Source: a virus
Length of the DNA stretch: 64,000 nucleotides
IMG/VR virus record: IMGVR_UViG_3300019889_000008
Coordinates: 9,827 to 73,826 of that record
Direction: 5' to 3' (one strand)
Below the pieces are notes generated by a model. The model had not been told where the DNA came from. It did no database searches and worked only from the letters and a program-made list of their open reading frames with translations. Every line of letters starts with the position of its first letter. Position 1 is the stretch's first letter. This document shows positions 34,218 through 35,668 of the stretch, one piece after another. The translations under genes were made by a program, and so were the position numbers.

Positions 34218-35015
34218 CTATTCCTCGCCGGCCTTCATGGCTTCCACCATGAGCGCGGTCAGATCCCTTTTGCGGCTCGGCTTGCACTGGACCTTGATCA
34301 GGTCGACAGGGCCGCCGGGCACCTCGTCGTTGAACACCCCGACCACGATGCGTCCCGTGAACCATGCGAAGGTGTCCAGGTCGGTCCGGCCGGCATACAG
34401 CATCGGGCCCTCGGCGAACTGGTGATGCCCATGAACGACATGCCTGTCGCCGTGGCCCCGCTCGTCGTCGTCATCGTAGAGCTTCCACATGAGCACATGA
34501 GGGCTCTGCTCACCGAGCGAGACAGTGGGGTCGACGCCGGCATGGACGAACACCCGATGTTGAGTGACGCAGATCATCGGAAGGCCGTCGAGCCAATCGA
34601 GGTGCTCGACCGGCACGATCGCCCGGTCGGCTATCTCGCCGACCTTCTGGCCGTATGAGATCAGCGTCGCCCCGCCGCCGTTGACGATCCACCACCCGAG
34701 GTCGGCTTTCCCGGATGCGCATTGGACCATGATGTCCTCGTGGTTCCCCTTGAGGCAGATCCAAGTCCAGCCCGGCGACGGCCCGGCCATCAGCCGGTCG
34801 ATGATCTGCTTGCTCTGCGGGCCCCGGTCGACATAGTCGCCCAAGAAGACGATCGTGCCAGGCCGCTTTGCATCGGCCTCGATGGCGGCCAGCGCCGCCT
34901 CCAGGATGTCGAGGCGTCCATGCAGGTCCGCGATGGCATAGGTGTAGCCCCGCGGGGCCTGGAGGCCCGCCAGCAGCCGGTCGCGCATTTCGTGTGCGGA
35001 GATGGTCTTGGGCAT
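34218..35015 (-). CDS. Metallophosphoesterase (Ser/Thr phosphatase, NinI/PphA-like)
   Basis: DLHG, GDYVDRG, GNHE, HAG and HGH motifs. Confidence 0.92.
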   Translation of the reverse strand: MPKTISAHEMRDRLLAGLQAPRGYTYAIADLHGRLDILEAALAAIEADAKRPGTIVFLGDYVDRGPQSKQIIDRLMAGPSPGWTWICLKGNHEDIMVQCASGKADLGWWIVNGGGATLISYGQKVGEIADRAIVPVEHLDWLDGLPMICVTQHRVFVHAGVDPTVSLGEQSPHVLMWKLYDDDDERGHGDRHVVHGHHQFAEGPMLYAGRTDLDTFAWFTGRIVVGVFNDEVPGGPVDLIKVQCKPSRKRDLTALMVEAMKAGEE

Positions 35016-35038
35016 CGTCTCACCGGTGTGCAAAGATC

Positions 35039-35186
35039 GCCGCGGGCCGGGCGCTAATCCGGCCTCCCTCTTGAGCCGACCTGATTCTCTTCGGCCGGGC
35101 CCGGCCTCCAAGGATAGGGCTCCCGAACCTGTACAAAGGTGGGGCGCCTGAGACGGCGGCATGTCTGCTTCCCACGCTGCCGCGGC
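35039..35186 (-). ncRNA. tRNA-shaped structured RNA with non-canonical loops
   Basis: GCCGCGG/CCGCGGC closing stem; D-like hairpin GCGTG GGAAGCAGA CATGC; T-like hairpin GCCGG ATTAGCGC CCGGC. Confidence 0.5.
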
Positions 35187-35234
35187 CACGCCATCATATC
35201 CGAGATCGGGCACAGATCAATGCCCATTGCGTGG

Positions 35235-35323
35235 TGGTGGGCGCCCGAGGATTCGAACCTCACGCGGCCGACCCGTCTCGGATTGCGCGCCGGGTTTACA
35301 GCCCGGTGACGGGAAAGGCGCCC
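35235..35323 (-). tRNA. D-armless tRNA-Tyr(GUA)-like RNA
   Basis: GGGCGCC TTTCCCGTCA CCGGG CTGTAAA CCCGG [27-nt variable arm] TGAGG TTCGAAT CCTCG GGCGCCC ACCA. Confidence 0.8.
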
Positions 35324-35499
35324 CGAGAGGTTTGAGCGGGGAATACACACGGCAGCCCTCCCCGCCCGACACAGCTACCTCAGACCGCGTCCGGCCCTTG
35401 GACCACTGCGGCGCCCCCACCTCGGAGGGACCGCTGCTGAAGCCTACCCATCTGCCGAGAGAAGGCTTCCATCTCGCACTGCCACCTAGCCCGCATGGG

Positions 35500-35579: not shown

Positions 35580-35668
35580 TGGCGGAGGGCGGAGGAATCG
35601 AACCCCTAGCGCTGTCAACGCTACCCCGGTTTTCGGGACCAGTTGCCGGCCATTCAGCGGCGCCCTCC
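35580..35668 (-). tRNA. (8/4) allo-tRNA / tRNA-Ser(CGA)
   Basis: 8-bp acceptor GGAGGGCG/CGCCCTCC; 4-bp T stem GGGG/CCTC; G73 CCA; long variable arm; anticodon loop CCCGAAA. Confidence 0.88.

Follow-up and report, generated by a model that had tools for sequence, protein, structure and literature searches.

The analysed window, a stretch of 64,000 nucleotides, lies within a viral contig of 73.8 kb whose G+C content is 66%. Its genes include those for tail tape-measure and tail-fibre proteins, for a primase/helicase and for a NinI-like phosphatase, and this combination of tail and replication genes indicates that it belongs to a tailed phage. The sequencing runs that contain the window region consist of soil-metagenome DNA alone. 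The window harbors a cluster of tRNA genes, which surrounds the unusual tRNA-Tyr-like gene analyzed in this study and comprises the following elements:

35759-35671, minus strand: tRNA-Ser(GCU)
35668-35580, minus strand: 8/4 Ser(CGA) gene of the allo-tRNA-like kind, C33 replacing U33 (anticodon loop CCCGAAA)
35570-35498, minus strand: tRNA-Gln
35324-35497: spacer of 174 nt between tRNA-Gln and the tRNA-Tyr-like gene
33347-33271, minus strand: tRNA-Met

The Ser(CGA)-like gene (35580-35668) was missed by ARAGORN with default settings and by Rfam at the gathering score. In two close relatives of the window, L013 and L029, tRNA-Gln and the Tyr gene are 1 nt apart instead of 174 nt, and the window thus carries an insertion between these genes. 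The open reading frame directly downstream of the tRNA-Tyr-like gene (34218-35213, minus strand) codes for a NinI-like Ser/Thr phosphatase (phrog_246, E = 3e-46) and also weakly matches the phosphoesterase portion of a family of RNA ligases.

The tRNA-Tyr-like gene itself consists of the parts listed below. H5 and H3 denote two complementary hexamers, and values for homologues refer to the alignment described further below.

35235..35323, minus strand: whole tRNA-Tyr(GUA)-like gene, 89 nt from G1 to the encoded CCA, identified from the sequence and with covariance model R1
35316..35323, minus strand: 5' strand of the acceptor stem, 8 nt, GGGCGCCU (GGGCGCC plus U; G1 = 35323); helix 1 is 99.4% paired
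35314..35315, minus strand: UU connector, UU in 42 of 44 distinct members
35308..35313, minus strand: 5' hexamer H5, CCCGUC, the strand in the place of the D arm, pairing with 35272-35277
35307, minus strand: invariant A separating H5 from the anticodon stem, resembling position 26 (A in 44/44)
35290..35306, minus strand: anticodon arm with stem CCGGG/CCCGG and loop CUGUAAA, GUA at 35297-35299 (sequence; covariation of helix 3)
35286..35289, minus strand: 5' strand of the variable stem, CGCG (permutation test, Tyr-type members)
35278..35285, minus strand: linker before H3, CAAUCCGA, A-rich in most other members
35272..35277, minus strand: 3' hexamer H3, GACGGG, within the loop of the variable arm, pairing with H5
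35268..35271, minus strand: UCGG, the conserved N(1-2)GG after H3 and a candidate stand-in for G18-G19
35263..35266, minus strand: 3' strand of the variable stem, CGCG (permutation test, Tyr-type members)
35247..35261, minus strand: T arm with 4-bp stem GAGG/CCUC and loop UUCGAAU (helix 4)
35239..35246, minus strand: 3' strand of the acceptor stem, GGGCGCCC (alignment)
35235..35238, minus strand: discriminator A73 (35238) and encoded CCA (35237-35235); A73 in 33 of 34 Tyr-type members, CCA encoded in 37 of 44 members
35232..35234, minus strand: second CCA (resulting in CCACCA), probably a 3' trailer, lacking in the close relatives L013, L029 and L212

The gene is canonical in its anticodon arm (5 bp, 7-nt loop, U33), its UUCRANU-type T loop, its discriminator and its CCA end. 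The eighth base of its acceptor strand, U, pairs with G35246, and the variable region spans 28 nt (CGCG-CAAUCCGA-GACGGG-UCGGC-CGCG-U). Outside mitochondria, a cloverleaf that includes a D hairpin is taken to be universal. ARAGORN with default settings made no call at the gene, and the Rfam tRNA family RF00005 did not match it in either gathering-score or E-value mode. The single weak Rfam match was to tRNA-Sec (RF01852; 28.5 bits versus a cut-off of 47), and Rfam 15 holds no family for a tRNA architecture with an H5:H3 helix. When folded alone, the gene is predicted to adopt a rod-like shape that is no better than those of shuffled sequences (z = −1.19), a result that says little at a G+C content of 71%.

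Homologues were gathered with sequence patterns. A first scan, in which the 5' hexamer and the anticodon loop were fixed, found low-G+C viral contigs with genes of the same layout; a pattern of this kind cannot show covariation and was used as a lead only. Later patterns left both hexamers free and were applied to IMG/VR, JGI metagenomes and one genome per prokaryotic species, and IMG/VR was scanned again with the anticodon free as well. Since the patterns demanded a tRNA-like frame and most of them also the GUA loop, the resulting set is a sample and not a census. Candidates were parsed on their acceptor, anticodon and T stems alone, and covariance model R1, which consists of three nested helices and contains no H5:H3 pairs, was used to produce the alignment (A5). 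R1 aligned 45 matches (44 of them distinct) with scores of 44–94 bits; the window gene scored 86.7 bits (E = 1e-22). The homologues stem from viral and metagenome contigs, one Rhizobiaceae metagenome-assembled genome (MAG) and cultured phages, and the 44 distinct sequences share a common layout across G+C contents of 41–73%. The 185,579 species genomes contained one true member, on a contig of the Rhizobiaceae MAG (L185), while the other 22 matches were due to chance, which makes this architecture essentially a phage feature. BLAST searches against GenBank phages with confirmation by R1 revealed members in Pseudomonas phages SCYZ1, Lyrsu01-03 and Rembedalsseter and in Nitrincola phage 1M3-16, in each case with no annotated feature beneath the gene. 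For the Trp-type member described below, BLAST against GenBank phages gave no match. The member in Nitrincola phage 1M3-16 (L380:1497-1583; NC_024217) is of the Arg(UCU) type, scored 43.8 bits and is located 2 nt upstream of an annotated tRNA-Met. It has one mismatch in the anticodon stem and an extra base in the 3' strand of the acceptor stem, and may be a degenerating copy.

A local hairpin in the place of the D arm is absent from all 44 distinct members, in which the acceptor and anticodon stems are separated by 9 nt (UU, the hexamer and A); a normal D arm, which the earlier note on this DNA had named as the sign of a simple deletion, thus occurs in none of them. That note had also pointed out that CCCGTC in the window is exactly complementary to GACGGG in the variable arm and had suggested searching homologues for covariation between the two hexamers. 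The homologues indeed keep the pairing. In A5 (columns 11–16 with 51–56), 98.9% of the H5:H3 cells are paired and covariation was found at every position, with double-sided compensatory changes in six of six pairs. The middle pairs vary between C-G, G-C, U-A, A-U, G-U and U-G, and at least 16 different complementary hexamer pairs occur among the homologues. A clean compensatory double change is seen already in the close relative L212, which has the same acceptor stem as the window and carries CCCCUC/GAGGGG versus CCCGUC/GACGGG. For comparison, the anticodon stem (helix 3) is 99.1% paired and covaries at all five pairs. Among 42 candidates obtained without a filter for hexamer pairing, 38 form six of six pairs and four form five, as compared to 8% with six pairs when the partners were permuted. 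RNAalifold predicted the H5:H3 helix unprompted. For all four helices taken together, 97.9% of the cells are paired versus 65% in shuffles, although the significance of such shuffle controls is overstated because the homologues are kin. This problem is partly answered by a control with slid registers, in which moving the 3' partners by one to three columns left only 37–56% of the cells paired (versus 97.9% in the true register), and by the many independent pair types. Judged by these comparative data, the H5:H3 pairing is real and far beyond chance. The covarying hexamers, with their at least 16 pair types and double-sided changes at all positions, support the view of the earlier note that the gene represents a selected fold and not a decayed gene.

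The acceptor stem, the GUA anticodon arm, the T arm and A73, which had been described as intact, are all present, but the stems of the upper half are 8 bp and 4 bp long and not 7 bp and 5 bp. The eighth acceptor pair is G-C in 20 members, U-G in 17, U-A in three, A-U in two and C-G in two, and the 5'-side base of a would-be fifth T-stem pair is usually mismatched with its partner, which closes the eighth acceptor pair instead. This covariation together with the mismatched fifth T-stem pair indicates an 8/4 rather than a 7/5 branch. A U-U mismatch at the second pair of the 4-bp T stem (A5 columns 73/85) was observed in 12 of the 44 members, mostly together with a G-C eighth acceptor pair. Anticodon and discriminator vary together, with A73 in 33 of the 34 Tyr-type (GUA) members and G73 in the Trp-type (CCA) member. 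The encoded CCACCA is present in the window, as had been noted, but is not conserved: the tails of close relatives read ACCAGCTC, ACCAGCGA and ACCATATA, and CCACCA is unique to the window, where it is probably a mere 3' trailer. An interpretation of CCACCA as a decay tag was rejected as a conserved feature since the close relatives lack it.

The variable arm has a conserved organization comprising an outer stem of 3–6 bp, an A-rich linker, the hexamer H3 and the motif N(1-2)GG. The last five nucleotides before H3 are 59% A across the family, and GG follows H3 at an offset of 1 or 2 in all 44 aligned members. The member in Pseudomonas phage Rembedalsseter (L379:513-600), which is outside the alignment, has UGUGU in place of GG and a perfect H5:H3 helix (CCCCAC/GUGGGG). 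In the 34 Tyr-type members the variable stem of 3–6 bp covaries (UGCC/GGCG, CGCG/CGCG, UGUC/GACG and CGAGUA/UACUCG), and its mean length of 4.44 bp exceeds that obtained with permuted partners (3.37 ± 0.19; none of 2000 permutations as high). The form of the variable arm that had been drawn from the window alone, a hairpin with a 6-nt loop, did not prove general, as its inner CCGA/UCGG pairing is confined to the window's own clade; there, the GG could be drawn into this pairing at the expense of its proposed role.

Since H3 is located inside the loop closed by the variable stem and H5 outside of it, simultaneous formation of both helices results in a pseudoknot. Such a pseudoknot had been proposed in the earlier note as a replacement of the D arm, and the covariation of the variable stem in addition to that of H5:H3 strengthens this proposal. 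Alternatively, H5:H3 could form without a simultaneous pseudoknot, giving a three-arm tRNA with an anticodon branch of 11–12 layers and a large 3' bulge, in which the variable stem would be an alternative or transient structure. The nested consensus of RNAalifold, which needs H5:H3 alone, and the Arg-type members, whose variable stem is just 2–5 bp long and ambiguous in register, are in line with this alternative. We nevertheless consider it unlikely, because the variable stem covaries in the 34 Tyr-type members and is significantly longer than permuted ones, and because linkers of 5–10 and 4–6 nt leave space for both helices.

Members of the family, hereafter referred to as rebuilt genes, are arranged head-to-tail with ordinary tRNA genes and are often only 1–10 nt away from their neighbors. 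Thirteen Tyr-type loci possess at least 15 tRNAs predicted by ARAGORN, and ten of these lack a canonical tRNA-Tyr. In locus L144, 37 tRNAs cover 19 amino acids with Tyr alone missing, and the rebuilt gene is located in a gap of the array; L218 with its 36 tRNAs shows the same pattern. A canonical tRNA-Tyr is also present in L177, L224, L271, L280 and L353, and the rebuilt gene is thus not always the sole Tyr tRNA. Locus L353 encodes 44 tRNAs with no canonical tRNA-Trp and contains a rebuilt Trp(CCA) gene with G73, and none of the ten rebuilt Arg(UCU) genes is found in a locus with a canonical Arg(UCU) gene. Judging from these anticodons, the architecture is not limited to Tyr, and versions for Arg(UCU) and Trp(CCA) exist. 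Members also occur in small phages. The 47-kb Pseudomonas phage SCYZ1 carries its member beside tRNA-Pro and the small terminase gene, and its genome has no annotated synthetase or other translation protein, which suggests that a dedicated partner protein is not needed. The Lyrsu phages (about 47 kb), which are related to SCYZ1, and Rembedalsseter (45 kb) each carry a member, too. Based on the filling of vacant array slots, the rebuilt gene appears to be used as a decoding tRNA.

The loci contained further elements of note. A phage-encoded tmRNA (L133:5466-5828) is located inside an array of 23 tRNAs, and a tRNA with a CUA anticodon (L280:9453-9527; an amber suppressor, designated 'Pyl' by ARAGORN) inside an array of 36 tRNAs. 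L286 and about 60 other loci from IMG/VR metagenome 3300045988 share a nearly identical element of ~50 nt with an acceptor-like stem (AGCGG/CCGCU) and a perfect T arm (CAAGG-UUCGAUU-CCUUG) and with no anticodon arm, which resembles a tRNA minihelix or a tmRNA's tRNA-like domain.

The rebuilt genes might also encode a tRNA-shaped RNA that does not decode and instead draws off, as a decoy or sponge, a host enzyme that cuts or modifies tRNAs, or that acts as an element in the processing or regulation of the array. The five loci that hold a canonical tRNA-Tyr as well would fit such a non-redundant role, and the nucleases of Septu and retron-Eco7 are known to attack tRNA-Tyr. Yet the anticodon loop is strictly tRNA-like (U33, GUA, A37-A38), the discriminator follows the anticodon (A73 with GUA, G73 with CCA), CCA is mostly encoded, and the genes fill exactly the missing amino-acid or codon slot of near-complete arrays. 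A non-decoding function is therefore quite improbable in our view.

Even less credible is a recoding tRNA that is charged with serine by SerRS, owing to its 8/4 branch and long variable arm, and that would insert Ser at Tyr codons. The idea derives some appeal from the 8/4 allo-tRNAs with long variable arms, which have serine identity and diverse anticodons (PMC5389517), and from the 8/4 tRNA-Ser genes that adjoin members of the family. It is opposed by A73 instead of G73 in 33 of the 34 Tyr-type members, by the engagement of the variable-arm loop in H5:H3, by the short variable region of the Arg type, and by the arrays, in which the gene fills an empty Tyr slot beside several Ser tRNAs; we thus regard Ser recoding as very unlikely. 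A canonical tRNA-Tyr that decayed by deletion of its D arm and acquired the hexamer complementarity by chance at high G+C content would agree with the lack of recognition by ARAGORN and the Rfam tRNA model, the poor single-sequence fold (z = −1.19) and the 66% G+C of the window, but can practically be discarded in view of 44 distinct homologues at 41–73% G+C with compensatory changes in every helix including H5:H3, the absence of a D hairpin from all of them, and their status as the only Tyr gene in most large arrays. A remnant of an integration site was rejected, too, as the gene is of full length and located in arrays and beside terminase genes of small phages.

The reading that we prefer, and consider quite probable, is a working phage tRNA-Tyr(GUA) of unusual architecture, in which a long-range helix would substitute for the D stem. 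The gene is conserved, its four helices and the variable stem are documented by covariation, and its filling of array slots by the gene content of the arrays; function as a tRNA-Tyr is likely on this basis. We infer the three-dimensional arrangement as follows. The 8-bp acceptor stem would stack on the 4-bp T stem with its normal T loop, yielding a 12-bp branch and an upper half of ordinary length. H5 would pair with H3 in the loop of the variable arm while the variable stem is formed, thus generating the pseudoknot. Because H5 leads through the invariant A into the anticodon stem without a break in the chain, stacking of the 6-bp helix on this stem is expected, as for a D stem, and the helix would there replace the 4-bp D stem and the two tertiary layers above. 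In tRNA-Sec and allo-tRNAs, the same layers are filled by a 6-bp D hairpin. H3 would run to the elbow, and the GG that follows would be placed where G18-G19 meet the T loop, so that the L shape is kept; this contact and the L shape are modelled on known structures of tRNA and tRNA-Sec. Charging and decoding are likewise deduced: after processing, the RNA would receive tyrosine from the host TyrRS, for which A73, GUA and the long variable arm are retained, and would read UAY codons. Consistent with the feasibility of translation without a D arm, an artificial D-armless tRNA was functional with unmodified E. coli translation components, but was unstable (PMC11551756).

A possible origin of the rebuilt genes is suggested by a neighboring gene in L212 (L212:500-586), directly upstream of the member, which is an 8/4 tRNA-Ser and a relative of the window's Ser(CGA)-like gene; it folds with acceptor, D and T stems of 8, 6 and 4 bp, respectively, and with an AAUGG D loop. 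The combination of H3 and UGG resembles the 5' D strand and the start of the D loop moved into the variable loop, and H5 with the following A would correspond to the 3' D strand. Due to this likeness, the family may go back to an 8/4 tRNA whose D arm was permuted. Probably, the ancestor was an 8/4 tRNA with a 6-bp D stem whose 5' D strand plus GG was shifted to the variable loop.

The selective reason for such a rebuilding can only be approached by conjecture. Phages are stopped by Septu and retron-Eco7 through cleavage of tRNA-Tyr within its variable arm, and the tRNA-Tyr of phage T5 escapes cutting by means of a different variable loop (PMC13096335; PMC11555353). We speculate, at a rather low probability, that the fold, with its helix-locked variable loop, missing D loop and preserved stability, may serve the escape from tRNA-cutting defences. 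According to a broader and rather doubtful proposal, the rebuilt genes would form a new class of elongator tRNA of tailed phages (comprising at least Tyr, Arg(UCU) and Trp, with a permuted D arm or pseudoknot), selected as a phage tRNA supply that is invisible to host defence nucleases reading the D or variable arm, with PtuAB of Septu and retron-Eco7 as examples. Escape from these nucleases leaves the Arg and Trp versions without an obvious explanation.

As far as can be told from the aligned genes and their surroundings, the rebuilt tRNA is a new structural variant of tRNA that is widespread in phages and invisible to standard annotation. It would represent another way to build the core of a tRNA, which, as the slot-filling suggests, is apparently used by the ordinary bacterial translation machinery. 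If our reading is correct, phage tRNA sets appear to lack Tyr because tRNA finders and Rfam miss the genes, and tRNA censuses and arguments from codon usage are biased. The rebuilt genes would then also offer a natural test of the D-arm needs of RNase P, CCA-related trimming, TyrRS, EF-Tu and the ribosome, a new scaffold for the design of orthogonal tRNAs and a candidate counter-measure against tRNA-targeting immunity. The members in cultured phages make these questions directly testable.

Several known RNAs share individual traits with the rebuilt genes. The closest resemblance in architecture is to the 8/4 allo-tRNAs, which comprise tRNA-Ser and tRNA-His of alpha-proteobacterial phages and combine an 8-bp acceptor stem and a 4-bp T stem with a 6-bp 'D' helix and a long variable arm (Mukai et al. 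2017, PMC5389517). Like the rebuilt genes, allo-tRNAs occur in phage tRNA clusters (PMC5389517), and 8/4 tRNA-Ser genes are located beside members in the window (35580-35668) and in L212 (500-586). However, the D stem of allo-tRNAs is a local hairpin with a small loop, whereas the strands of the rebuilt helix are separated by the anticodon arm and the second one is located in the variable loop. Moreover, the identity of the rebuilt genes would be Tyr, Arg or Trp according to their anticodons (GUA, UCU and CCA), in contrast to Ser or His in allo-tRNAs, and the rebuilt form is absent from the main text of the allo-tRNA study (PMC5389517). Mitochondrial D-armless tRNAs, such as the mammalian mt-tRNA-Ser(AGY), and the engineered E. 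coli 'mini HisT' share with the rebuilt genes the lack of a D hairpin and a short connector between the acceptor and anticodon stems, but this connector consists of 4–5 unpaired nucleotides, the contact between the D and T loops is lost, and the molecules have a Y shape and are unstable (PMC11551756). According to the same 2024 paper, all known bacterial tRNAs are canonical and natural armless tRNAs are exclusively mitochondrial (PMC11551756). The rebuilt tRNA differs from these forms in its conserved and paired connector, the retained GG and its phage and bacterial cytosolic setting. With tRNA-Sec (RF01852), the rebuilt genes have in common an extended acceptor stem, a 6-bp D helix and a long variable arm, but they possess GUA instead of UCA, lack the D hairpin, have a branch of 12 bp and not 13 bp, and score below the 47-bit cut-off of this family. 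Canonical bacterial class II tRNA-Tyr likewise has A73, a D region starting with UU-CCC, a long variable arm and the anticodon GUA within CUGUAAA; it differs by its 7/5 branch, its D hairpin with G18-G19 in the loop and its variable arm, whose loop is free and which is cut by Septu and retron-Eco7. In the accessible literature on D-armless or pseudoknotted phage tRNAs, no phage or bacterial tRNA with a D stem formed by the variable loop has been described. A precedent for a pseudoknot that builds a tRNA shape is provided by the TYMV-type tRNA-like structures of plant viruses, where it is located at the acceptor stem of the genomic 3' end. In the rebuilt genes, the pseudoknot would instead form the equivalent of the D stem in a free-standing tRNA gene.
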